Source: a virus. From it: 64,000 nt of DNA. Shown here piece after piece: positions 5,001-50,348 of the stretch. The notes under the pieces were generated by a model. The model was not told the origin of the DNA. It saw only the letters and a list, made by a program, of their open reading frames with translations, and made no database searches. The position numbers and the translations under genes are program-made. Position 1 is the stretch's first letter. Each line of letters opens with the position of its first letter. The DNA lies in IMG/VR virus record IMGVR_UViG_3300037502_002220, positions 32,001-96,000 of that record, one strand, 5' to 3'.

Positions 5001-8000
5001 CTTAATTAATAGAATCCAATCTGGACAACCTGTTCAGTTTACTAAAGAAGCTTTACGTCAAGCTGCAACAACAGAAGTTGGTTTAGCTACTGGTGAGTTC
5101 TTAACAGAAACTTTAGATTTTTTAGAAACAAAGAATGCTGAAAAAACTAAATCAGCGTTTTTAGAAAAGTTTGCTGATTATCAAGTTAGGTTAGAGCGAC
5201 AGATGATGAGTGTATCTAACGAACTTACACTAGCTGTACAACTATCAGATGAAGTACGAGATCTTATTAATTTAATTACTGAGTACATATCTGAAGTTGA
5301 AGCAAGTCCTGCCGTAAAGTCTTTATCTGAAATTCCAGACGATGTTAAAGCTGAGTTAGAAAGTAAGTTTCCTGGTGTACTTAACGCTATGGATAAAGCT
5401 TTAAAAAGCAACAATCCAGATGTTGTATTAAGATTCTTAGCTAACTTAGTAAATAAAGTTAAAGATCAGCACAGTGAAACCTATGTAGAGGTACTTAAAG
5501 ATTTTGCTAAGTTGCTACAACCGTATGTAAACTTATCTGCTGAAATAAGCTCTGACGTACTTAGTAACAGAGCGCAAGAGTTAGTAGATATGATAGATAA
5601 AAATGATACGTATGTTAAAGGACTTCAAGCATTACGTAGGTTTTCTGTCTTGATTAAATATCAAAGACAGTTAAGTAAACTTAAAAATCAAATACTTAAA
5701 GGTTACTCACCTAAAGAAGATCCGCAGATAATACCTGATGTTGAAACACAAGATGTTACAGGTGACCCTACTTTATTTAGTAGTGAAGAACAGAATAGAA
5801 AAGTACTTTCGTTATTTAATACTTCTGGGTTAAATATTGAGTACGATAATGACGGTAATGATGTACGTGCAGATATTCTCAACTTAGGTTATACATTACC
5901 TGTACCTTCACAATCTGATATTACAAGAAACTTCTTTCAATGGTTAGATAGTAGTGATACTGGTAACTTTAAGGTGATACCTTACGCACCAGAGTTTAAC
6001 GATACAGACTTTGATGATATTACAGATCCTGAAACAGCTAAGGTACTTAGAGATTATATTGCAGGTACTCCTCCTGATGCTCGTGCAGAAGCATTGTACG
6101 GTGTTGTTATAGAAGAAGTTGATGGTGCACGTATGCTTAAGATGTATAACGGTAAACCTTTGATTAATTCTATGATGCGTCCGCAAACTAAGTTTCCTAG
6201 CAATAGAAACCCTAGAATGGCTAGACGTGCGTACATAGGTTTATTTTTAAAAGATGTATTAGGTTGGACATCTATACCTTCAGATAAAGATTTAGTAAAT
6301 ACTAATAATTATAATTTAATTAAATCTAGTATTGACAAATTAGAAAAATATGGTATTTCTATACCAGATCCTAAATCATTAACATCTCGTAGTTTTTACC
6401 ATATGATAGAATCTTTTGCGTTAGTATATACGCAAATGAAATATCAGCAAGGATTTAATGAGCTGTTGTCTAAGACTAGAGAACTAAAAGGTAGTGATTT
6501 ATCTTCGCGTAAATTATTAGAAACTACTGGTATTAGTAAAGGATTTCAAGTAGTAGCTAAAACTATTAATGGTGAACCTGTACAATTTGATTCTGAGAAC
6601 ATGGAGTTAGAATATACTCCTGCAGGTAACCCTAAGAACTTTGATGTACTTAAAGCTAACTTTGATGGTGTAGCTACATTAAACGGTGTTAAGTATGATG
6701 CTTTACAACCTGGTCGTTTGTACATTAAAAAACATGATAGCAATACGTTGATACCTGTAGAAATGGGCATGTTGTCTAATAACGAAATAGATGCTATCTT
6801 GTACATGCTTAGTATGTACGCAGATAACAAACGTTCATTAAGACAGATGATACCACAATTAGATGGTAGTGTTAGAATTAAAAATACATATATTAAATTA
6901 TCTAATATGTCTATACTACCAGCTACTAAAGACAGAGTTAGTTTAATATCTATGATAATGAACTGGGGCTTTAAAGTTAAAGGAGACCCTTCACCGTTTG
7001 ATATTTATTTAAGTAAAGGTTCAGTGATATTTAACGATTCTTCAATATCATTAAATGCTCTTAAGAAAGCATACTTAGAAAACGATGCAGCTACTTTACA
7101 ACCATTAATAGCTTTTCTAAGAACAAAGCGTGTTAACGCTAATTATAACTTACTTAGTGTAGCTAATAACTTTTTTGAGTTTACGGTAGAGAGAGATAAA
7201 AAAACTAAAAAACCATTTGACATTAAAGCTGTACAAAAACAAGGATCATACGCTAAACACATATTAGATCGTGCTTCGTTTTACGGTGCACCTAAAGATG
7301 TGTTAGATGCAGCAGGATTGCCTAGTTCTGCGCAGAAATATATTATGTTTAAAGACTTTGATACTAAAGTAGATGTAAATGAGTTTAGAGCTAAGGCACC
7401 TAGCCCTAAACCTAAACCAGTATTTACACTTAAACCTAGTGGAGTTAGTCCTGTTATAAATGCTTTAAGAGAAAGTAGCTCTATAACAGATTTTAGAACT
7501 AGAGCAGCTTCTTATCTTACAGATCCTGAAAGTGTAGGATTGTTTAGTAGGATATTAAAAAAGTTAGAAAATGAAAGTGGTCCTTTGTTTGAAGCAGAGA
7601 AGCTTTTAGTACTTAATGATAAAAGTATTGTTAGTAGTAAAACAACTGCAGACGTTACACCTGAAGAAAGTTCTGTTACAGTAAAAGATATCTTAAGTAG
7701 TTTGGAACAAGAAGAAACTCAGCAAGGTGAAGAGGGTGGTACTAACATTACAATGAAAGAAGCTTTAAGTACGCTGTGGGAACAAGTAGGTGGTAAACCT
7801 GAAACTCAAGAACAACCTGAAGCTGGTGTTACTGAGCAAGAATCTCAACCTCCAGTTGAAGAAACTAAACCTGACTTTAAAACTATTGAACCTGATTTCA
7901 GTAAAGTGTCTGTATCACTTGATATAAGTAGTATAGACGACACTGATTTCTTAGCTATATTTAAAGAAATTAATTCAGACGGCTTTGGTAAATTTGCATC

Positions 8001-8568
8001 TCAAAGTGATGAGTGGATGACTAGGTATCAAAAAAATAATGTAAACTCTTTATTTATTACAGCAAACGGCTTTGTAAGTATGGAGAACATTAGTAATGAT
8101 TCTATTGCACCAGGTAAAACATTTAATTTTCAAGGTACTGTAAGTAATACTTTAAACGAACGTCTTAGACGTAAATATCTATCTGTCACAAAAGATCCTA
8201 CATACAAATTAGCTATAGAAGAAGCTCGTAAACAAACTGAAGCTTTAATCAATAAACCTAGTACTGAACCTACACCTACTAATATTGTCGACGTATCTAA
8301 AATAGACATAAGAACTTATAAACCTGTAGTTGGAGATGTAATTGAAATGGAGGGTAAAGATTACACTGTTGTAAGTGTAAGTAAAACCGTATCTTTAAAA
8401 TCTGGTACAGAAACAAAAGTACTTAGAGTTAGTGCATTTAGACCTGGGTTAGATTCAAATACAATGAAGTTAAAAAGTAGGGTGGTTAAATCTGTAGCTG
8501 ATTACAATAAGATATTAAGTGATGCTATACAGCGTGGTATTATTGACGAAATAAACTGTAATAGATAA
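2008..8568 (+). CDS. Giant virion cargo/ejection protein (2186 aa)
   Basis: Gly/Ala-rich hydrophobic N-terminal segments, long coiled coils, directly upstream of the virion RNAP as in crAss-like phages. Confidence 0.7.
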   Translation: MAKILTPQDLSTVDRGIPQTSIRPFSFREAANLATGGIGPPSPMKIRDASEYEGVDVSFALQGGERALQEGRALRQTNLELVGKGLGNIAENVIFETLKFPGTIASGIGIVTGNEGMVNNLWLQGFDALQKPLTELTEVYVPPSVQEKGLWGQLSSPYFWAGEGADAIGTMLSMMIPGRWLATFGLGAKAAKGLAKVGKLGEIAVDGSRILETTGDANKIGKFLVKTLGSTGRGLDFGKLARNIDSGVAVATNTLLESSAEALDTYESLLAQGKTPEEAGEAATKVMMLNMGLLTVSNTLLEKYVFNGFNRLPSVGKQLTTALKGGTPVFKPFQQAGIKFAAGVLAEGVIEEGLQTSFQQEEGDPIRSLERYFENFQSLFSADPDIEFGKAVILGSLLGGAVGGISGFSDVREQRATLEGRPERVLAKGRLGTLQGMLGYKAKQAEKGLIDIFRPSFESLKTGKDILKNSVNEKGEFNVEALKDDSIMFALSNMVDDILLQNNGDVQASKTQVAASLSELGMSNAAIKSLVNGLIPSDINNLSGEQVLKLITLKKDNTYFSRFAANPAGFEMLDAHIDDMVDALEERYEMNTGAKLSDEKKKSISTDLKSKAKRYKNMYEAATTFNNNVRYGIEVAQEDAEDFNEFIRMTQGQTLGSMTYIEELRTIADEIEKETNAEQQKINTAKSTLENAKKDGDPDLIKSREQDLAKAISDANAAVPNFNDKRKDLARIRENVAAREKNIIEFGTEPKVREKWEAFLEVKREKKKATQQYFDGVEVDTKIMPAIYKIIYDQLVNKGYTPELITDIPFVKIAVFHATYEGDLYTFTQTKDGFNVRNHSEQSDETVANWKALIEKFPKLTILTVDQYNLEKQRIDKEIADRKAELEQQAAIEALTQLSIELRQEFNKIEASLQSDYNTLQGVKEELAKAKKRLKSVQAKLRRDSKKGIPVGELQDTVTELKTLVKQLEAQQENTIRTIANLENVRIRLQSELNGIASLINRIQSGQPVQFTKEALRQAATTEVGLATGEFLTETLDFLETKNAEKTKSAFLEKFADYQVRLERQMMSVSNELTLAVQLSDEVRDLINLITEYISEVEASPAVKSLSEIPDDVKAELESKFPGVLNAMDKALKSNNPDVVLRFLANLVNKVKDQHSETYVEVLKDFAKLLQPYVNLSAEISSDVLSNRAQELVDMIDKNDTYVKGLQALRRFSVLIKYQRQLSKLKNQILKGYSPKEDPQIIPDVETQDVTGDPTLFSSEEQNRKVLSLFNTSGLNIEYDNDGNDVRADILNLGYTLPVPSQSDITRNFFQWLDSSDTGNFKVIPYAPEFNDTDFDDITDPETAKVLRDYIAGTPPDARAEALYGVVIEEVDGARMLKMYNGKPLINSMMRPQTKFPSNRNPRMARRAYIGLFLKDVLGWTSIPSDKDLVNTNNYNLIKSSIDKLEKYGISIPDPKSLTSRSFYHMIESFALVYTQMKYQQGFNELLSKTRELKGSDLSSRKLLETTGISKGFQVVAKTINGEPVQFDSENMELEYTPAGNPKNFDVLKANFDGVATLNGVKYDALQPGRLYIKKHDSNTLIPVEMGMLSNNEIDAILYMLSMYADNKRSLRQMIPQLDGSVRIKNTYIKLSNMSILPATKDRVSLISMIMNWGFKVKGDPSPFDIYLSKGSVIFNDSSISLNALKKAYLENDAATLQPLIAFLRTKRVNANYNLLSVANNFFEFTVERDKKTKKPFDIKAVQKQGSYAKHILDRASFYGAPKDVLDAAGLPSSAQKYIMFKDFDTKVDVNEFRAKAPSPKPKPVFTLKPSGVSPVINALRESSSITDFRTRAASYLTDPESVGLFSRILKKLENESGPLFEAEKLLVLNDKSIVSSKTTADVTPEESSVTVKDILSSLEQEETQQGEEGGTNITMKEALSTLWEQVGGKPETQEQPEAGVTEQESQPPVEETKPDFKTIEPDFSKVSVSLDISSIDDTDFLAIFKEINSDGFGKFASQSDEWMTRYQKNNVNSLFITANGFVSMENISNDSIAPGKTFNFQGTVSNTLNERLRRKYLSVTKDPTYKLAIEEARKQTEALINKPSTEPTPTNIVDVSKIDIRTYKPVVGDVIEMEGKDYTVVSVSKTVSLKSGTETKVLRVSAFRPGLDSNTMKLKSRVVKSVADYNKILSDAIQRGIIDEINCNR

Positions 8569-31640: not shown

Positions 31641-33275
31641 TTATTCATAGCCCATTGCTTCCGATACTACAGGGAATCTTTTTTTAAATAGTTCACGAAT
31701 TTCATTAGCTACTTGACGATGTTCTAACTGTGTATGTGGATCCATGCGTACAGGAAGATAGTGCATCCAAGAACGCACAGAACCTTTCATATACATTGTA
31801 GTACTGGTAGCTAACGGTAATATACTTCTTGCAGTTTCTCTAGATACACCAGCGTCTAACAACGCTTCATACACATCAAAAGTAAGATCTGTAACCATAG
31901 CTACAAGTTCATCAGCTTCGTACTGTTGATCGTGTAATGTTACAATAGGATTAAATTCTTCTTCAGAAGATTGTCTATTGTTCTTAGCTTGCCTGCGTAT
32001 AGAGATAGGCTCTATACCTTGTGCATTTGCATATCTTTGTGAATTATGAGTTATAATATTGTTGGCTACATAATTGTGACTTTTATGGTTTACTTCTAAA
32101 TCATAGGTCATCTCTTCTCCTACATATTCTATTGAAACTATGTGAGAATAACCTATTGTTTTTCTACTCTCTATTGATTCTTTTACACTTTTAAGCTTAT
32201 GTTCTTCTTTTGTTAACAACTGTAAGTTGTTTATATCAAAAGCTAATTCTGGGTACAAATAAACAGGTAAAATATGGTCTACTTCATATAAGTGAAGATC
32301 TTTAAAATTAATATTTTGTCTTACAGCCAAAAGCGCTTTGTGTTTTATACACTCATTTGCAACTTGTTTTCTCCAAGATATAGTATTACCTGTATACAAA
32401 TTAGAATCAGAACCTTTTCTAGAAGCTTTTCTCAAGTTTAATCTTAACTCAAGATTAAACTTTTTACCAAAATTAGGTTGCAATTCAGTAGGTAATCCTT
32501 TATTCCAGGCTTCTGTATACAAGCTTGTTTCACTTTTAGTAAACTGCAAAGAGTGTATCTTTAACCACTTTCTAATTGTGTGATAAGAAACATTAGCTTT
32601 ATCTGCAATATACTGCACTCCATTTCTACTTAGCGATTCTTCTTTAGCTTTAGCTAGCCAGTCTTTATCTTGATAACAAGCTATTCCGTTAACGGCTATG
32701 TAATTACCTACAGCTAAATCACTTAGTTTTTTAAATCCTTCTTTGGTTAAAAACTTGTGGTCTAATGTAGACTTAATATTTTTACCGTTTGCTAAAGTAA
32801 CTTTGTAAACAGGTTTTACTCCTGTCTGAAATACTTCTTTTATTTCTACACTCTTAAATGTTTTTGAATCTTCGTCGTATACTTTCACTCTCGGTGCTCC
32901 GAATCTGTTCCAATAAGAACTCTTGTATCGTTTATACAAGCTTTCTATTGTTACTTTTTTACATTTACGAGCGTCAGGATAAAATAATGTTATCAGACTA
33001 TCTCCTGATATACAAAATTCTTGAAAAAAGAACGAACGATGCCTAAGAATTTGTGCAGCTACATATCTACTGGTTGTAATCTCAACAGTGTAATCTACCA
33101 TCTCAAAAGGAGACCAGTGTTTATGTTTTACAAGATACTGTAACAGCTTAGGTGCAGTATCTAGATTAAGTTGATTCTCTGGATTACTGACCCTAGCTTC
33201 ATACACAATTAGATCTTCTGCTTTATCAATACCTTTTACTAGAGGCATTGTAATAGATACTTCAGATACTTTCAT
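31641..33275 (-). CDS. thyX: Flavin-dependent thymidylate synthase interrupted by an intein
   Basis: HWSPFE, QILRHRSF..QEF|SQRY, RETARSILP, RSWMHY, TQLEHR. Confidence 0.92.
   Translation of the reverse strand: MKVSEVSITMPLVKGIDKAEDLIVYEARVSNPENQLNLDTAPKLLQYLVKHKHWSPFEMVDYTVEITTSRYVAAQILRHRSFFFQEFCISGDSLITLFYPDARKCKKVTIESLYKRYKSSYWNRFGAPRVKVYDEDSKTFKSVEIKEVFQTGVKPVYKVTLANGKNIKSTLDHKFLTKEGFKKLSDLAVGNYIAVNGIACYQDKDWLAKAKEESLSRNGVQYIADKANVSYHTIRKWLKIHSLQFTKSETSLYTEAWNKGLPTELQPNFGKKFNLELRLNLRKASRKGSDSNLYTGNTISWRKQVANECIKHKALLAVRQNINFKDLHLYEVDHILPVYLYPELAFDINNLQLLTKEEHKLKSVKESIESRKTIGYSHIVSIEYVGEEMTYDLEVNHKSHNYVANNIITHNSQRYANAQGIEPISIRRQAKNNRQSSEEEFNPIVTLHDQQYEADELVAMVTDLTFDVYEALLDAGVSRETARSILPLATSTTMYMKGSVRSWMHYLPVRMDPHTQLEHRQVANEIRELFKKRFPVVSEAMGYE
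32043..33014 (-). mobile_element. Intein (324 aa) carrying an HNH homing endonuclease
   Basis: Starts Cys (CISGDS), TLDHKF block B, ends TYDLEV...IITHN before Ser; EVDHILP...NLQLL...H HNH motif. Confidence 0.9.
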
Positions 33276-39389: not shown

Positions 39390-41260
39390 ATAAATAACGT
39401 TAACTGTGATTGTATCAAGCCTAGATCTGTTAAGATCTCTTCCGCCTTACGTTTGTAAAAATTGTAATCTATATTATAAGGTCCTTTAACATACTTATTA
39501 AATATCGTAACCTTAGTAGATTTGATATTACCTAGCGCATGTTTTTTACCTTGACGTTCTTTAAACAAAAAGTTTCCATCTTTGGAAACATAGTACACAT
39601 TCAGTCGCTGTGGTAGTTGTTCATCACCTAAGTACATCGTATAAGATTTATCTATCTTTTGCGCACCACAAAAGTCGTAGATATCACACTTATCAAAAGT
39701 ATCTTGTAATGGTATACCATATACGAGATAGTTCTGCACTGCTTTAGGTACTGCTAAGAAATCTACTTTATTACCTAAGTCTGGATCAGTAACAAACCAA
39801 CCTTTTTCTTTAATGGAACCATCTGTAAACACACCTAGATAGCTATTTACATTAAGCATGTAGAGTGTCTCATAGCTGAAGTGTTCTAGCTCAAAGCCAG
39901 TGTACGCTTCCCAAGCTTTACACTTAGCCATAAATTCATCAAACCTATGCTCTGGTACATAAAGCTCAAAGCCATCTGTATTAGCCATAATAGGTTCACA
40001 GCCTAAGCTAATAGCTTCTTCCAGTAACATCAACAAAAACAACTGACCATTAATTGTAATCCTAAAAAAACTATATGGATCATATACTGGTGAGTTCTCT
40101 TGATTAAAGTTACCAATAGTACCATTAGCTGCTAGTTTAAGCAAGTTAGCTTCTGGTGATTTACCTTGACCAGAGTGTTTAAGTTTAAGTCTTTCTTTGC
40201 GAATATAACCTAGCTGCTCATGTAACTTACATTTTAATGTCTCAGCTAAAGCAGGATAATAACCAGCTACATCTAATGAATGGAATATATACCCTGGTTT
40301 TTGACGATACGTAGATGGTTTATTTTTACTGTGTAAACCACCTTGTTTAAGTTCAAACTGTACGTCAGCTAAAGTTACATTAAAGTGTAATGGTTTTTTA
40401 CGATGATGCCTGTTGACTTTAGTTAGCAGTACTTTAAGTTCGTGTGATTTGAATTTGATGCGATCATCTACAACTTCATAAAAGAAGTTAAAGTCTCTAG
40501 GTTCTGAGATAGGTGTTTCTATCAGCTTAAGTGCTACGTTAAGACCTAGTTTAACAGCATCAGCACTAAGTACAGATTTAGTAAACCCGTACTTTTGTAT
40601 AGCTGCTTTACGTAGATCTATCATCTCTGGAAAAGTAGTTGATTTACCTTGCCAGTTAAATTTCTTGGTGAGTAGATACTTAAGAATACCTAAGTCATGA
40701 ACTGAGTTATACTCTAATAGCTTCATGCGCATGTTATCCTGTACTGGTTCATCTGGTCTAATAGGTAACTCTTGTATAACAGGATAACGTAATTGTACAG
40801 CTAAACCTTTAAGGCTTATCTTCTTAACGATACGTAGCATTCTAGACCAGTACGTAAATAAATCTATATCGTGCCACTTGTGATGCCATTTATATTTCTT
40901 GTAGTCTTCGTTCATAAACCACGTATCATCTGTAATTACCATATCTGAAAACATCTTAATGTCTTCGTTCGTAGCTTCTGGATTAAGACGTACGTAGTTA
41001 AGTACAGGACAATCGTAGTGTATACCATTAAAGGTAACTACTTCAGTTCGTTTGTGATCTAGTAAGTTCAAGTAATGTATAAGTAATTGCCTATCGTCTT
41101 GGTACTTATCGTAAATAAAAACGTGGGTGCTACCATTAAAATCAGTAACACCCACGCAGAAGAAATTTACAAAGCACTCAACGTCTAACCCAACTCTAGT
41201 AGCATTACAGAGTTGCGTATAGGCGTACGGCATGTTTTGAATCATAGAAGGTGTGGTCAT
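39386..41260 (-). CDS. polB: DNA polymerase family B (crAss-like)
   Basis: Exonuclease DVE, FNGIHYD, YNSVHD; polymerase DVAGYYP, KLAANGTIG, ANTDG. Confidence 0.9.
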   Translation of the reverse strand: MTTPSMIQNMPYAYTQLCNATRVGLDVECFVNFFCVGVTDFNGSTHVFIYDKYQDDRQLLIHYLNLLDHKRTEVVTFNGIHYDCPVLNYVRLNPEATNEDIKMFSDMVITDDTWFMNEDYKKYKWHHKWHDIDLFTYWSRMLRIVKKISLKGLAVQLRYPVIQELPIRPDEPVQDNMRMKLLEYNSVHDLGILKYLLTKKFNWQGKSTTFPEMIDLRKAAIQKYGFTKSVLSADAVKLGLNVALKLIETPISEPRDFNFFYEVVDDRIKFKSHELKVLLTKVNRHHRKKPLHFNVTLADVQFELKQGGLHSKNKPSTYRQKPGYIFHSLDVAGYYPALAETLKCKLHEQLGYIRKERLKLKHSGQGKSPEANLLKLAANGTIGNFNQENSPVYDPYSFFRITINGQLFLLMLLEEAISLGCEPIMANTDGFELYVPEHRFDEFMAKCKAWEAYTGFELEHFSYETLYMLNVNSYLGVFTDGSIKEKGWFVTDPDLGNKVDFLAVPKAVQNYLVYGIPLQDTFDKCDIYDFCGAQKIDKSYTMYLGDEQLPQRLNVYYVSKDGNFLFKERQGKKHALGNIKSTKVTIFNKYVKGPYNIDYNFYKRKAEEILTDLGLIQSQLTLFI

Positions 41261-41705
41261 GATACCTAATTACTTTTTCATTTTTAATAGTTCTTAACCA
41301 TTTCTTGTCGGTTGCAATCTTTTCATTTGCAAAATACAATACTGTTTCTGGTAGAACTTTCTCTTCCATGACCAGTACTCTAAACGCAGCATCATAAGAT
41401 TCTTGATTAGGTCTTTCATAAAAGTGCTTAGTTCTCACACCGTCGAATTGTCCTTTAGACAATATTACGGAACGAATACTAGTTTTCATACCTAATCTTA
41501 AAAAATATTTTTGCCTGTTTATTACAACTTGTGCTACAGCTAGTTTACCAACCATAGGTTGATTACCAGCTTCGCAGTAAATAAGTCTTGCAAGTAGTTG
41601 TAAATCATCACAAGACTTTGCTGATACTGTAATTGTATCACCGTGTGCTACATAAGTAGGTTCTGGTGGTACGAACATTAACATAAACCATAAACATAAT
41701 TTCAT
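41205..41705 (-). CDS. Cell wall hydrolase, SleB/Hydrolase_2 family
   Basis: LARLIYCEAG...GKLAVAQVVINR...GQF...LYF...HTFY. Confidence 0.9.
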   Translation of the reverse strand: MKLCLWFMLMFVPPEPTYVAHGDTITVSAKSCDDLQLLARLIYCEAGNQPMVGKLAVAQVVINRQKYFLRLGMKTSIRSVILSKGQFDGVRTKHFYERPNQESYDAAFRVLVMEEKVLPETVLYFANEKIATDKKWLRTIKNEKVIRYHDHTFYDSKHAVRLYATL

Positions 41706-45123: not shown

Positions 45124-45227
45124 GATACACGTTTTACTACAATTCTAAACCCAGTATCTAGTATATTTCTATTAGGAAACCTGAGTTCGTGATTAGCTTG
45201 TACAACACCGTTTAGATATATCATCAT
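45114..45227 (-). CDS. Array micro-ORF 33 (37 aa)
   Basis: MMIYLNGVVQANHELRFPNRNILDTGFRIVVKRVSWK. Confidence 0.7.
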   Translation of the reverse strand: MMIYLNGVVQANHELRFPNRNILDTGFRIVVKRVSWK

Positions 45228-45346
45228 CGTATAAACTTTAGTGTTAGTATAAACCTATCTCTTTCTGTCATATTGTTGTGTATATATTGAATAACACTCT
45301 TACCCATACCTCTAAAATCTGGATATATACAAATTAAGATCATCAT
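45224..45346 (-). CDS. Array micro-ORF 32 (40 aa)
   Basis: MMILICIYPDFRGMGKSVIQYIHNNMTERDRFILTLKFIR. Confidence 0.7.
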   Translation of the reverse strand: MMILICIYPDFRGMGKSVIQYIHNNMTERDRFILTLKFIR

Positions 45347-45462
45347 AGTATTTGCTTTAGTGTTATTTTAAATACGTCGTATATAGTTAAGGTGTCTTGC
45401 AAAGATTGAGGACAATCTTTATTTGCATTAAATTTTGGGTAACAAACTATTATGTAAATCAT
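45343..45462 (-). CDS. Array micro-ORF 31 (39 aa)
   Basis: MIYIIVCYPKFNANKDCPQSLQDTLTIYDVFKITLKQIL. Confidence 0.7.
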   Translation of the reverse strand: MIYIIVCYPKFNANKDCPQSLQDTLTIYDVFKITLKQIL

Positions 45463-45578
45463 GATACATGTTTTAAGATAAGTTGAAATCTATCGTCGTA
45501 CACAATATCAGCTACAAGGTTTGCTTCTACCCTACTCTTGTAAGCTGCAGGATTGCGTACAAATATTACTGCTAACAT
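45459..45578 (-). CDS. Array micro-ORF 30 (39 aa)
   Basis: MLAVIFVRNPAAYKSRVEANLVADIVYDDRFQLILKHVS. Confidence 0.7.
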   Translation of the reverse strand: MLAVIFVRNPAAYKSRVEANLVADIVYDDRFQLILKHVS

Positions 45579-45685
45579 GGTATCTGTTTTAAGGTAACAT
45601 GAAGTCTAAGCGCATTGATTGAAGGATGACCTAAACGTATGTGTGAAAATTGTTCAGATTTAATTTGTAGTTCTATGTATTTCAT
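45572..45685 (-). CDS. Array micro-ORF 29 (37 aa)
   Basis: MKYIELQIKSEQFSHIRLGHPSINALRLHVTLKQIPC. Confidence 0.7.
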   Translation of the reverse strand: MKYIELQIKSEQFSHIRLGHPSINALRLHVTLKQIPC

Positions 45686-45701
45686 GGTATTTGTTTTAAT
45701 A

Positions 45702-45818
45702 TTACAGTAATTGTGCTTGTTTTAAGATAACACGATATCTTTCCATACTAATTCCCATACCGTGAATATACGCTTGATAAATCGTATTAGGACTAGTTAT
45801 TATGTCAATGTGAAACAT
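45702..45818 (-). CDS. Array micro-ORF 28 (38 aa)
   Basis: MFHIDIITSPNTIYQAYIHGMGISMERYRVILKQAQLL. Confidence 0.65.
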   Translation of the reverse strand: MFHIDIITSPNTIYQAYIHGMGISMERYRVILKQAQLL

Positions 45819-45918
45819 GTACTTGTTTTAAGATAATAGAAAAGCTCTCACGACCACTGTATCCTAACATTATTACAGTTAAAAAAGCGGCTGTGTATCC
45901 ATATGCGTCAGTTCTCAT
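45805..45918 (-). CDS. Array micro-ORF 27 (37 aa)
   Basis: MRTDAYGYTAAFLTVIMLGYSGRESFSIILKQVHVSH. Confidence 0.7.
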   Translation of the reverse strand: MRTDAYGYTAAFLTVIMLGYSGRESFSIILKQVHVSH

Positions 45919-46019
45919 GGTATTAATTTTAAAGTAATCGAAAAGCAATCATATCCGCTATGTCCTAGTTCGTGTACATAAATATAACTATACGCGTGTC
46001 CATATGCCCATGTGTTCAT
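45915..46019 (-). CDS. Array micro-ORF 26 (34 aa)
   Basis: MNTWAYGHAYSYIYVHELGHSGYDCFSITLKLIP. Confidence 0.7.
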   Translation of the reverse strand: MNTWAYGHAYSYIYVHELGHSGYDCFSITLKLIP

Positions 46020-46126
46020 AACATTAGTTTTAATATTATTGACAAATCATCTTGAACAACTTCGTTTAGTTCTACTTCATTAAAAGGTATTACGCCTTTT
46101 CCAATAAGTAAGTATATCGTATTCAT
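46016..46126 (-). CDS. Array micro-ORF 25 (36 aa)
   Basis: MNTIYLLIGKGVIPFNEVELNEVVQDDLSIILKLML. Confidence 0.7.
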   Translation of the reverse strand: MNTIYLLIGKGVIPFNEVELNEVVQDDLSIILKLML

Positions 46127-46242
46127 AATACAAACTTTATCATAACTAAAAAATCATCATCAAAAATTGGTATTAAACCACGGTCTTTGTTTACTAGCTT
46201 ACAAGAATAAAAAGAGTAACCTACGTAACTTGTTAAGTCCAT
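46123..46242 (-). CDS. Array micro-ORF 24 (39 aa)
   Basis: MDLTSYVGYSFYSCKLVNKDRGLIPIFDDDFLVMIKFVL. Confidence 0.7.
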   Translation of the reverse strand: MDLTSYVGYSFYSCKLVNKDRGLIPIFDDDFLVMIKFVL

Positions 46243-46319
46243 AATATTTTGATTGTGATTAAAACACTGTCGTCTGCGTAAAATATGTGATCTACAAGTG
46301 TTATGTATTTTGTGTCCAT
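46233..46319 (-). CDS. Array micro-ORF 23 (28 aa)
   Basis: MDTKYITLVDHIFYADDSVLITIKILWT. Confidence 0.65.
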   Translation of the reverse strand: MDTKYITLVDHIFYADDSVLITIKILWT

Positions 46320-46426
46320 AATATTAGTTTTAACGTAATTACAAAATCTTCGCACATAGCATTTGAACGTTTGATTTCACGTGCTGTAAGTAATGATTCA
46401 GATACTAGTATTCTGTAATATTCCAC
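46301..46426 (-). CDS. Array micro-ORF 22 (41 aa, GTG start)
   Basis: MEYYRILVSESLLTAREIKRSNAMCEDFVITLKLILWTQNT. Confidence 0.6.
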   Translation of the reverse strand: MEYYRILVSESLLTAREIKRSNAMCEDFVITLKLILWTQNT

Positions 46427-46542
46427 TTTAAGGTTATTAAAACATTATCGTATAAGTTTACACCCCTGTACGAATTAAAATATGTACTAGACATTATTTC
46501 TCGTCCAAGAAGTTTAACTGCTTCTAAACGTCGTATTTCCAT
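46405..46542 (-). CDS. Array micro-ORF 21 (45 aa)
   Basis: MEIRRLEAVKLLGREIMSSTYFNSYRGVNLYDNVLITLKWNITEY. Confidence 0.6.
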   Translation of the reverse strand: MEIRRLEAVKLLGREIMSSTYFNSYRGVNLYDNVLITLKWNITEY

Positions 46543-46667
46543 GTCAGTATAATTAAGAAATCTTTATCCTCAAGTTTTGTTCTTTTTAATCTATCCAGTA
46601 AATGTTCATTACCATGTGTACCAATAGGCATACATAGATCTAACATTGTAAAGTATTTTACTTCCAT
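46524..46667 (-). CDS. Array micro-ORF 20 (47 aa)
   Basis: MEVKYFTMLDLCMPIGTHGNEHLLDRLKRTKLEDKDFLIILTWKYDV. Confidence 0.6.
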   Translation of the reverse strand: MEVKYFTMLDLCMPIGTHGNEHLLDRLKRTKLEDKDFLIILTWKYDV

Positions 46668-46792
46668 CACATGTATTTAACCGTAAAAATAAAATCATTC
46701 TTGACGTAGCTACAATTACTAAATGCTAGGTAATCTAAATACAGTTTACAATCTATACTATGTACCCACATTGTTAAGTCTGTAAATTTCAT
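46667..46792 (-). CDS. Array micro-ORF 19 (41 aa)
   Basis: MKFTDLTMWVHSIDCKLYLDYLAFSNCSYVKNDFIFTVKYM. Confidence 0.7.
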   Translation of the reverse strand: MKFTDLTMWVHSIDCKLYLDYLAFSNCSYVKNDFIFTVKYM

Positions 46793-46911
46793 ACCATGTG
46801 TTTATTTGCTAATTGTAAAATAACCTTAAGATGTGCACAGTTAACATAAGGTGGAATAAACACATCATTATCTAATAAAATGTATTCCCAATCCCTATAT
46901 TCTACTTGCAT
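46789..46911 (-). CDS. Array micro-ORF 18 (40 aa)
   Basis: MQVEYRDWEYILLDNDVFIPPYVNCAHLKVILQLANKHMV. Confidence 0.7.
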   Translation of the reverse strand: MQVEYRDWEYILLDNDVFIPPYVNCAHLKVILQLANKHMV

Positions 46912-47021
46912 ACCATGTACTTTTTTATAAGCCTAAAGTTAGGTTTAAAGAAAGCGTATTTAATAACATAGGGCTCAAGAAACACGTCTGTAGTATAGTT
47001 CCAACCAGTTTCTACTTTCAC
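46902..47021 (-). CDS. Array micro-ORF 17 (39 aa, GTG start)
   Basis: MKVETGWNYTTDVFLEPYVIKYAFFKPNFRLIKKYMVCK. Confidence 0.7.
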   Translation of the reverse strand: MKVETGWNYTTDVFLEPYVIKYAFFKPNFRLIKKYMVCK

Positions 47022-47137
47022 GATATTTGTTTTACAGTAATTAAAGGTAGTACAGTAGGCTTACTTATTCTGCGATCAGCATCATACATTGGATTTGATA
47101 TAGGAAGGTTTACGTAAAAGGTCATAAATGCTATCAT
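47018..47137 (-). CDS. Array micro-ORF 16 (39 aa)
   Basis: MIAFMTFYVNLPISNPMYDADRRISKPTVLPLITVKQIS. Confidence 0.7.
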   Translation of the reverse strand: MIAFMTFYVNLPISNPMYDADRRISKPTVLPLITVKQIS

Positions 47138-47241
47138 AATCTGTATTTTAGTACAAATATTACAATGTCTATCTTAGGTGCATGTTTTAGCTTGTCGTGA
47201 AATCTATAGCCATCAAAGGTATAGTCTAATGAAGCTTTCAT
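47134..47241 (-). CDS. Array micro-ORF 15 (35 aa)
   Basis: MKASLDYTFDGYRFHDKLKHAPKIDIVIFVLKYRL. Confidence 0.7.
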   Translation of the reverse strand: MKASLDYTFDGYRFHDKLKHAPKIDIVIFVLKYRL

Positions 47242-47339
47242 ACAAATATTTTACTGATGACTAAAAGAGATCTACCTGCGTAAGTTGTTTTTAATTTTCC
47301 ACTAGAACTGTCGACCCATAAAATGTATAGCAACCTCAT
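47238..47339 (-). CDS. Array micro-ORF 14 (33 aa)
   Basis: MRLLYILWVDSSSGKLKTTYAGRSLLVISKIFV. Confidence 0.7.
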   Translation of the reverse strand: MRLLYILWVDSSSGKLKTTYAGRSLLVISKIFV

Positions 47340-47437
47340 TCTGCATGTTTTATAGTAATGAATAAACATATTCCACATTTACCAGATCTTCTGTCATTCT
47401 TAAGGTTAGTACCTACGACACTGTGTGTTATAATCAT
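47336..47437 (-). CDS. Array micro-ORF 13 (33 aa)
   Basis: MIITHSVVGTNLKNDRRSGKCGICLFITIKHAE. Confidence 0.7.
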   Translation of the reverse strand: MIITHSVVGTNLKNDRRSGKCGICLFITIKHAE

Positions 47438-47553
47438 TGTATGTGTTTTAAACTAATTCTAAATCTAAGTACAGTAATGACATAGGCTTTAAGATCCATT
47501 TTTAGCACTAAGTCACTGTTCTTTAATGTCTCAACAAATCCTACAAATTTCAT
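47434..47553 (-). CDS. Array micro-ORF 12 (39 aa)
   Basis: MKFVGFVETLKNSDLVLKMDLKAYVITVLRFRISLKHIQ. Confidence 0.7.
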   Translation of the reverse strand: MKFVGFVETLKNSDLVLKMDLKAYVITVLRFRISLKHIQ

Positions 47554-47699
47554 GGTATGTATTTTACAATAGCTCCAAAATTACTTGCGTTATGGTTCAA
47601 GTTTAAATAATCTACAGCTTCGTGTAAACGTATAGTCATGTAGTTATTTATGTACGGTGTAGTAACTGCTCTGTACATCATTAAGTCTATAAATTTCAT
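47550..47699 (-). CDS. Array micro-ORF 11 (49 aa)
   Basis: MKFIDLMMYRAVTTPYINNYMTIRLHEAVDYLNLNHNASNFGAIVKYIP. Confidence 0.7.
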   Translation of the reverse strand: MKFIDLMMYRAVTTPYINNYMTIRLHEAVDYLNLNHNASNFGAIVKYIP

Positions 47700-47925: not shown

Positions 47926-48053
47926 AAAACTAGCTTTAGCATAACGTAAAATGAATAAGGAGGTACGTTATCTAATTGTAATACCTCAAGTACGTGTTCT
48001 GTTAACGTGCATACAGACTCGTCTTTAACAAGTATCATTTCAATAAATCTCAT
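47922..48053 (-). CDS. Array micro-ORF 8 (43 aa)
   Basis: MRFIEMILVKDESVCTLTEHVLEVLQLDNVPPYSFYVMLKLVL. Confidence 0.7.
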   Translation of the reverse strand: MRFIEMILVKDESVCTLTEHVLEVLQLDNVPPYSFYVMLKLVL

Positions 48054-48074
48054 GATTTAAGTTTTAACAGGGTT

Positions 48075-49080: not shown

Positions 49081-49101
49081 AGGTAGGTATATTAAACACA
49101 A

Positions 49102-49124
49102 ATGCCCTTGGTTTACAAGGGCAT
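49102..49124 (-). promoter_or_regulatory. Hairpin just upstream of the micro-ORF array (terminator/attenuator or 5' stabiliser)
   Basis: atgcccttg/caagggcat perfect 9-bp stem, followed by TTGTGTTT on -. Confidence 0.55.
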
Positions 49125-49130
49125 CGTGGA

Positions 49131-49523: not shown

Positions 49524-50348
49524 TCAATAGAAAAAGATATTAGACATGTACTCTTCTTTTGGAAACTTATCTTTCCAGATATCCTCGTCCATATAGGGTA
49601 AGTTATCGGGAACAGCCATTTTCCACACATTACCTACAGTATCGTAGATACCGTACTTGTTTGGTTTCTTCTTCTTTACAGGTTGTGTTTTACCACCCAT
49701 CTCTGCAGTAGTCCATGCAATCTCTTGAATATCTGTACGAGTATCTAAGTTCTCAGCATGATCTGCAGCGATTGTAGTCCACTCTGCTTTTGTAGGAAAC
49801 AGGAATACAGCGTGACCTTTGATAGCTGGGTTATACCAGAACCACCACTGACCGTTGTACTCTTTCATGATATACGGCATTGGTTTACCGTGCATATCAT
49901 TTAACCAGTTGATGTACGAGATTGCGTTCAAGATCTCAAGGTTAATCGCTGGGCGATCATCGCGACCATAGTTTTGATCATTAGCGAGATCTCTTCCTGT
50001 CATATAACAGAAAGCATCAAACTGGTTGAACGTAACTACGGTATCTGCTGATGCAACAAGTGGAAAACACTCTGCAGGTAACGGTACAAAAGTACCTAAA
50101 TCAATGTCTTTGTCGCTGATAGTCTTTTGCTCAAAAGCACGTTGTGATGTAGCTACAGCAACTACAAACGGTTCTACAGGTTTTCTGTTGACCACATTAA
50201 TAATTGCAATAGCATTACGGTGTACTTCTTCAAGCTCTGGTGTGTTGAAATACTTACGCATTTTAGGTAATGCTTGTGCATACCATTTACCAAAATCTTT
50301 AGAAGAAGCTTTTTGTTGAACTTGATCTTTAAATTCTTGTACAGTCAT
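49524..50348 (-). CDS. FGE-sulfatase/SUMF1-family (C-type lectin fold) domain protein, divergent
   Basis: VTFNQF, RPAINL, PTKAEW, TQPVKKKKPNKYGIYDTVGNVW. Confidence 0.75.
   Translation of the reverse strand: MTVQEFKDQVQQKASSKDFGKWYAQALPKMRKYFNTPELEEVHRNAIAIINVVNRKPVEPFVVAVATSQRAFEQKTISDKDIDLGTFVPLPAECFPLVASADTVVTFNQFDAFCYMTGRDLANDQNYGRDDRPAINLEILNAISYINWLNDMHGKPMPYIMKEYNGQWWFWYNPAIKGHAVFLFPTKAEWTTIAADHAENLDTRTDIQEIAWTTAEMGGKTQPVKKKKPNKYGIYDTVGNVWKMAVPDNLPYMDEDIWKDKFPKEEYMSNIFFY

Follow-up and report, generated by a model that had tools for sequence, protein, structure and literature searches.

Micro-gene junctions in a crAss-like phage probably combine a Shine-Dalgarno-less initiation region with a conserved protein tail

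Overlapping gene pairs of the ATGA/TAATG type carry an intragenic Shine-Dalgarno (SD) signal and are translated by termination-reinitiation coupling (Huber et al., 2019; PMC6728339). Bacteroidetes make no use of the SD motif, even for re-initiation (PMC6728339). The initiation regions of Bacteroidia are instead SD-less and Kozak-like (Baez et al., 2019; PMC6847099), and in Flavobacterium johnsoniae A at −3, −6, −12 and −13 promotes initiation (PMC6847099). We analyzed a window of 64,000 nucleotides (nt) of the virus record IMGVR_UViG_3300037502_002220 (positions 32,001–96,000; focal genome label G000), which holds an array of 50 chained micro-genes. Translation initiation in Bacteroidota and their phages does without SD pairing, and the array bears on re-initiation at overlapping genes in that setting. 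The units are under purifying selection, and two layers of constraint, one at the RNA level and one at the protein level, exist at the junctions between them. Each junction is probably at once the initiation region of the next cistron and the tail code, conserved across the family, of the previous micro-protein.

Tiling of open reading frames (ORFs) places 50 units of 28–49 amino acids (aa) on the minus strand, from 49080 down to 43339 (window coordinates, unless another record is named), with 45 ATG and five GTG start codons. The exact overlap ATGA is found at 26 of the 49 junctions; 40 of 49 share the same −1 frame register, and nine are in other registers or have gaps. On the array strand, 99.5% of the sequence lies in open stretches of at least 28 codons, compared with 72% on the opposite strand and a mean of 66% (maximum 84%) in shuffles. 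A terminator-like hairpin lies just upstream of unit 1 (49101..49125, minus strand), no terminator-like site was found within the array, and the next one follows the neighboring ATPase gene (41798–41763). Stop/start overlap on one strand without an internal terminator-like site is the layout expected of termination-reinitiation coupling. Tandem Repeats Finder detected no tandem DNA repeat in the array; the units have therefore diverged past recognition at the nucleotide level, the joint excepted.

A sister phage in IMG/VR (L001), with a flanking ATPase 93% identical, carries a homologous array at 78–88% nucleotide identity, and between the two arrays units have been gained and lost whole. Over 38 orthologous unit pairs (1374 codons), the synonymous rate dS is 0.398, the same as for the flanking ATPase. 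The ratio dN/dS (omega) is 0.30 when the units are read in the annotated frame and rises to 0.73 and 0.98 in the alternative frames; the ATPase has a value of 0.094. The differences amount to 0.149, 0.099 and 0.190 at first, second and third codon positions. Because omega is frame-specific, the units code for protein in the standard code and experience moderate purifying selection. This 5.7-kb region, mostly passed over by annotation pipelines, is a real and hitherto undescribed micro-protein family in a crAss-like phage.

The chain could in principle consist not of separate genes but of non-coding repeats, of one long gene recoded to read TGA or TAG as sense, or of a frameshifted polyprotein. 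Crassvirales genomes do have short-ORF regions due to stop-codon reassignment (PMC7886860), and the −1 register is common to most of the junctions. This account nevertheless has next to no probability: in addition to the frame dependence of omega, ATG or GTG stands at the joint in every unit, and the nine junctions in other registers or with gaps do not fit it. The phage genome has no tRNA genes, the giant ORFs on the plus strand of the window (2186, 2533 and 1332 aa) are intact in the standard code, and reading TGA as sense extends the frames by a median of only ~3 codons. The intact giant ORFs and the short read-through rule out stop-codon recoding, and frame-specific purifying selection, together with the lack of a tandem DNA repeat, rules out a non-coding CRISPR-like repeat array.

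Aligned on the start codon, the 50 units share the junction consensus yTA AAr nnn rTA nnA TGA. The initial annotation had given the typical junction as TTA AAA NNN NTA NNA TGA, with TAAAA at −13 to −9 and A at −3, and the alignment bears this out: T-13 is present in 37 of 50 units, A-12 in 42, A-11 in 46, A-10 in 39, A-9 in 31, T-4 in 31 and A-3 in 35. Farther upstream, T occupies positions −26 to −24 in 29–32 of the 50. The window contains 13 matches to the strict pattern TAAARNNNNTANNATG, where 1.24 are expected, and 0 of 100 shuffles reach 13; all 13 are on the minus strand and inside the array, nine of them within 45300–47560. A typical example is the junction of units 30 and 31 (45459..45476, minus strand), CTT ATC TTA AAA CAT GTA TCA TGA, which codes for ...LILKHVS-stop and includes the ATG of unit 31.

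A second lineage (L008) has an ATPase 50% and a DNA polymerase 67% identical to those of G000; L008, L009 and L010 are one phage at 99.9%. The gene order of L008 is that of G000 (lectin-fold gene, array, ATPase, SleB-like gene, polymerase), and its array comprises ~30 units of 29–60 aa with endings of the form ...T-L-K-H/Y-I-x and an almost identical junction nucleotide consensus. Orthology between individual units of the two lineages was not recognizable, N-terminal similarity being no better than in shuffled controls; the C-terminal motif persists. One L008 unit (8316–8466 of that record, plus strand) is seemingly broken, with the motif ...FSIALKLMSL in a start-less frame preceded by an in-frame stop, so units do decay.

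For comparison with ordinary genes we used 94 genes of the same genome (ORFs of at least 70 aa with usable upstream sequence). These favor A at −14 (0.57), −13 (0.56), −12 (0.73), −11 (0.63) and −3 (0.64), are depleted in G and show no SD motif (G 4–17%), a profile that agrees with the one published for F. johnsoniae (PMC6847099). No SD motif was found between −15 and −5 in the array either, where G occurs in 0–8 of 50 units from −14 to −6 and in 11 of 50 at −5, and at −12 and −3 the array is indistinguishable from ordinary genes. At these two positions the junction matches both the genome's own logo and the Flavobacterium determinants (PMC6847099), as expected from the proposal that it contains a Bacteroidota-type initiation signal. 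Predicted pairing is lowest, 0.36, at −12 to −10, versus ~0.55 elsewhere. The Bacteroides −7 promoter motif TAnnTTTG, read on the consensus in sense or antisense, is absent from the junction.

The same nucleotide conservation might come from the protein alone, that is from a conserved peptide combined with AT-rich codon bias or recent common ancestry, and TTA, AAA, ATA and GTA are indeed the codons that this genome uses most often for the residues concerned. At in-register junctions, −12 and −3 are third codon positions and can therefore be tested against codon usage. With expectations taken from each array's own codon usage (38 in-register junctions in G000, 22 in L008), third-base A-12 is in excess in both lineages (34/38 versus 22.5 expected, P = 8e-6; 19/22 versus 12.9, P = 0.004), as is third-base A-3 (27/38 versus 20.2, P = 0.008; 19/22 versus 12.6, P = 0.002). 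The third positions −24, −18, −15, −9 and −6 of G000 show no A excess over codon usage; that at −21 is marginal (18/38 versus 13.8, P = 0.05, uncorrected for nine positions). Leu at in-register junctions is encoded by TTA (15) or CTA (5) and never by CTT, TTG, CTC or CTG, which together make up 35% of interior Leu codons, CTT alone making up 21%. This constrained third base of Leu is the best evidence for the RNA layer. The initial annotation had Leu alternating between TTA, CTA and CTT; the first two stand, and the apparent CTT came from an out-of-frame reading of ...TCTTAAAA.

Comparison of orthologues leads to the same two positions. Base −12 changed in 0 of 23 cases, compared with ~4.7/23 at other third positions (P = 0.005), and the thirds at −9, −15, −18 and −21 changed in 4–6 of 23. 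The eight orthologue changes in the codon that ends at −12 are all scored as first-base (CTA<->TTA four times, ATA<->GTA three times, ACG->ATG once). At the junction of units 11 and 12 (47550..47567, minus strand; GTA AAA TAC ATA CCA TGA, coding for ...VKYIP-stop), Val replaces Leu and A-12 is retained. Among the 12 out-of-register starts, A-12 and A-3 are each present in 8/12, and two of these starts are preceded by orphan motifs outside coding sequence. If shared ancestry or gene conversion were responsible, every third position would be frozen; as only two are, neither can account for the pattern. With A-12 and A-3 above codon usage in two lineages and neighboring thirds not, the explanation from the protein alone is quite improbable.

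The converse explanation, from RNA alone, would make the Leu-Lys ending a mere translation of the A-rich initiation region, with no selected role for the tail. The A-tract does stand in the register of the genomic logo, and ordinary coupled genes in the same register are mildly enriched in the same residues (Lys 4/15 at codon 0, the Lys codon of the consensus; Lys 4/15 and Leu 5/15 at codon −1), as an A-tract would be expected to produce. The junction departs from this expectation in several respects. T-13, the middle base of the Leu/Ile/Val codon, runs contrary to the RNA optimum: ordinary genes have 30% T and 56% A there (P = 5e-7). Among AAN codons at codon 0, Lys outnumbers Asn 29 to 2 in G000 (P = 7e-7) and 15 to 0 in L008, yet −9 is unconstrained in ordinary genes, which show no base preference at that position. 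AAA and AAG were exchanged four times between orthologues with Lys kept. The list of units reported to use AAG for Lys (8, 24, 31, 32, 43 and 44) is exact, and unit 17 is a seventh; at the junction of units 31 and 32 (45343..45360, minus strand), CTA-AAG specifies Leu-Lys by alternative codons and A-12 is retained.

Conservation extends well upstream of the A-tract. Codons −5, −3, −1 and +2 encode hydrophobic residues in 31, 30, 30 and 29 of 38 junctions (baseline 0.44), so that the proposed i,i+2 periodicity is present, and codon −2 encodes Thr, Ile or Val in 27/38. Both lineages are enriched in Asp and Glu at codons −8 to −6, and neither residue occurs at −2 to +2; this acidic patch lies 27–35 nt upstream, past the reach of any signal in ordinary genes. 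T is fixed at the second codon positions −25, −19, −16, −13 and −4, a 3-nt period, and among third positions only −12 and −3 are constrained. The full pattern, hydrophobic residues at codons −5, −3 and −1 with Lys at codon 0, is found in 16/38 array junctions and 0/15 ordinary coupled genes (Fisher P = 0.002). The explanation from RNA alone is already largely refuted, and we consider it very improbable. The initial annotation held that protein-level selection acts on top of the RNA signal; that the FxIxLK-like ending is missing from ordinary coupled genes and that conservation depends on codon position both support it.

The other end of the units has features of its own. Residues 3–9 form a hydrophobic-enriched N-terminal segment, with position 6 hydrophobic in 41/50 units; the second residue is mostly Lys or Asn, and +4 and +5 are A-rich as in ordinary genes. 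The initiation region therefore partly shapes both protein ends.

The junction had also been described as a conserved beta-strand, and as a model-based assignment this is plausible. AlphaFold prediction of unit 32 with 73 length-matched relatives (predicted local distance difference test score, pLDDT, 60.5) places strands at residues 2–7 and 31–36, the second of which is the motif, and its terminal blocks have a pLDDT of 67 and 73, which lends weak support. Prediction from an alignment of all 133 units gave a pLDDT of 57.6 and no secondary structure, and the predicted complex of two copies of unit 30 scored 0.01.

The 18-nt joint might instead be kept mainly as DNA homology for unequal crossing-over that adds and removes units. 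Whole units have been gained and lost between G000 and L001, and contigs from two other studies (X3, X7) jump from 45341 to 45458, skipping exactly unit 31 (45342..45457, minus strand; a 116-nt period) with 8 nt shared at the joint. Units 31 and 32 (45222–45462, minus strand) and L001 units 34 and 35 (7372–7616 of that record, plus strand) are close paralogues. Duplication and loss of units are locally concentrated in the region of units 31 and 32. Orphan junction motifs are also reckoned to flank an inserted ORF. One of them, TGTTAAAACTTAAATC (48051..48067, minus strand), lies before unit 8 and 3' of the stop of a 71-aa ORF outside the family (48290–48075, minus strand). The insert is missing from L001, where another unit occupies the place, and is followed by the orphan motif. 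A further orphan motif, TATTAAAACAAATACC (45683..45701, minus strand), lies in the non-coding gap that separates unit 28 (stop at 45702) from unit 29 (ATG at 45685). No in-frame family ORF precedes it, which suits either a function at the RNA level or the remnant of a lost unit. As the main reason for the conserved joint, recombination is nonetheless improbable: 18 nt with variable positions are poor homology, crossing-over needs identity and not specifically A at the two positions favored by the initiation logo, and the codon-position pattern is left unexplained. The junction may also serve as micro-homology, a use that more probably follows from the repeat than explains it.

We therefore return to the reading in which the junction bears two superimposed constraints. 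As mRNA, it would be an SD-less initiation region of Bacteroidota type, with an A-tract at −12 to −9, A-3, low predicted pairing and an AUGA start/stop overlap, and ribosomes ending one micro-gene would re-initiate on the next along a 50-cistron message. As coding sequence, the junction and ~20 bases upstream specify the sole conserved part of each micro-protein, a tail of the form [D/E]1-2, hydrophobic, x, hydrophobic, T/I/V, L/I/V, K, x, I/V, x, C-terminus. Conservation exceeds that of ordinary genes at the Lys bases AA at −11 and −10, for which both layers call. The RNA leaves its mark in silent third bases frozen as A at −12 and −3, and the protein in a T-13 that overrides the A preferred by the RNA and in AAR retained against AAY. 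We infer re-initiation, the strand conformation and any function of the tail from these patterns.

Several points weigh against this reading. A-13 and A-6 are two of the four published positive positions and are not kept in the array (A-6 is found in 16/50 units, no excess, and is also weak in ordinary genes, at 0.37). The third position −9 shows an A excess in L008 (P = 0.004), which leaves a small probability of an RNA-side purine requirement there. Omega for the last 10 codons is 0.31 and thus no lower than the 0.29 of the variable part; the tail motif is a constraint of class (hydrophobic, Lys), without one of residue identity. AlphaFold confidence is low in both models. The paralogues and the G000/L001 pair are non-independent samples, and L008, the only independent replicate, has no sister genome for rate tests. 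The Bacteroidota host is itself a putative assignment, based on crAss-like kinship and the initiation logo, and no RNA run appears among those listed for the stretch.

It is possible that the tail forms a shared docking or pairing strand, with a hypervariable middle held between N- and C-terminal strands, and that the units are a fast-turnover accessory library in phage-host conflict. A bolder and rather doubtful version would make the junction a cassette joint with three roles: initiation signal, docking or pairing strand, and micro-homology for unit duplication and loss. If this were true, a duplicated unit would automatically be expressed and 'plugged in', the phage would evolve a library of ~50 mini-proteins, binders or decoys against the host, and the array would provide the first natural read-out of the bases driving SD-less re-initiation in Bacteroidota.

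Pfam and PHROGs gave no match to the units, an ESM Atlas search with the units reached a best score of 0.77, under the meaningful level, a family profile run against 1.84 billion representatives gave 0 matches at E <= 0.001, a word-based protein search for the family gave 0 matches, and megablast of the array against a phage database gave none. In IMG/VR, three two-junction patterns recovered only the G000/L001 clade and the L008/L009/L010 phage, the remaining loci being chance matches without arrays. Phages with a 37%-identical ATPase have ordinary genes where the array would be, which weakens the idea of the ATPase as an obligate partner of the array.

The virus record that holds the window is 105,444 bp long and comes from an uncultured phage in a subsurface metagenome; freshwater runs hold partial relatives. 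Its final 100 bases are a copy of positions 104–203 (outside the window), which suggests, on sequence grounds, the terminal overlap of a circular or terminally redundant assembly. The minus strand of the window encodes a replication module (DNA polymerase, helicase, exonuclease, thymidylate synthase), and the polymerase is closest, in the phage collection, to those of crAss-like phages (~28% identity). A 544-aa ORF (31641–33275, minus strand) matches thymidylate synthase at both ends and has HNH-endonuclease-like and terminase-like matches in the middle, which suggests a putative intein or inserted homing endonuclease.

The array neighbors are a gene with a C-type-lectin/FGE fold, an AAA+ ATPase and a SleB-like hydrolase. 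The ATPase, of the classic PAN/Cdc48/FtsH kind, adjoins the array; between it and the DNA polymerase lies a SleB-like cell-wall hydrolase domain (41205–41705, minus strand; E = 4e-13), an odd site for a lysis-type enzyme. Directly upstream of the array, the lectin-fold gene (49524–50348, minus strand) has an FGE-sulfatase/C-type-lectin-fold domain, the best solved relative of which is TvpA, the variable protein of a diversity-generating retroelement (DGR) in Treponema denticola (2Y3C, E = 2e-8). No RVT_1 match to a reverse transcriptase was found across the 105-kb genome, nor does the 3' end of the lectin-fold gene occur a second time as a possible template repeat. A link to a DGR is ruled out, as both the RVT_1 match and a template/variable repeat pair are missing; the gene is possibly an orphan or a former DGR target.

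The array amounts to a natural experiment, with ~50 replicates in one genome and ~30 in an independent lineage, that singles out A-12 and A-3 as selected silent sites; position −13 offers a measurable trade-off in which the peptide wins over the RNA.

Parts of this arrangement have counterparts in known systems. The array resembles T4-type plastic regions and the lambdoid nin region in its tightly coupled, same-strand tiny genes between conserved modules, in units without database relatives, and in the gain and loss of whole cassettes; unlike those regions, all 50 units belong to one paralogous family with a common C-terminal motif. Like the prochlorosin-type precursor sets of ribosomally synthesized and post-translationally modified peptides (RiPPs), it encodes numerous short paralogues, each constant at one end, much as in a recognition element, and hypervariable otherwise. 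It differs from them in that the constant part is C-terminal, the cores are not rich in Cys, Ser or Thr, and the array sits in the replication module, in a phage of lytic type; the array neighbors include no recognized RiPP enzyme family.

The initiation regions described by Baez et al. (2019; PMC6847099) share with the array A-3, A-12, an adenine run at about −14 to −10, low structure and the lack of an SD motif. The array differs in having T in place of A-13, in not keeping A-6, and in its location inside coding sequence, because of which the evidence comes from silent sites, not from reporters. The closest parallel is with the gene pairs of Huber et al. (2019; PMC6728339), in which stop and start likewise overlap and the downstream start likewise draws on a signal within the final codons of the gene before it, codons that are for that reason doubly constrained. 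There the signal is an SD motif, whereas here it is an A-tract with A-3, repeated ~50 times in one operon and coincident with the one peptide motif that the family conserves. The array junction is thus the A-tract/A-3 counterpart of the known SD dual constraint, fused to a family motif.

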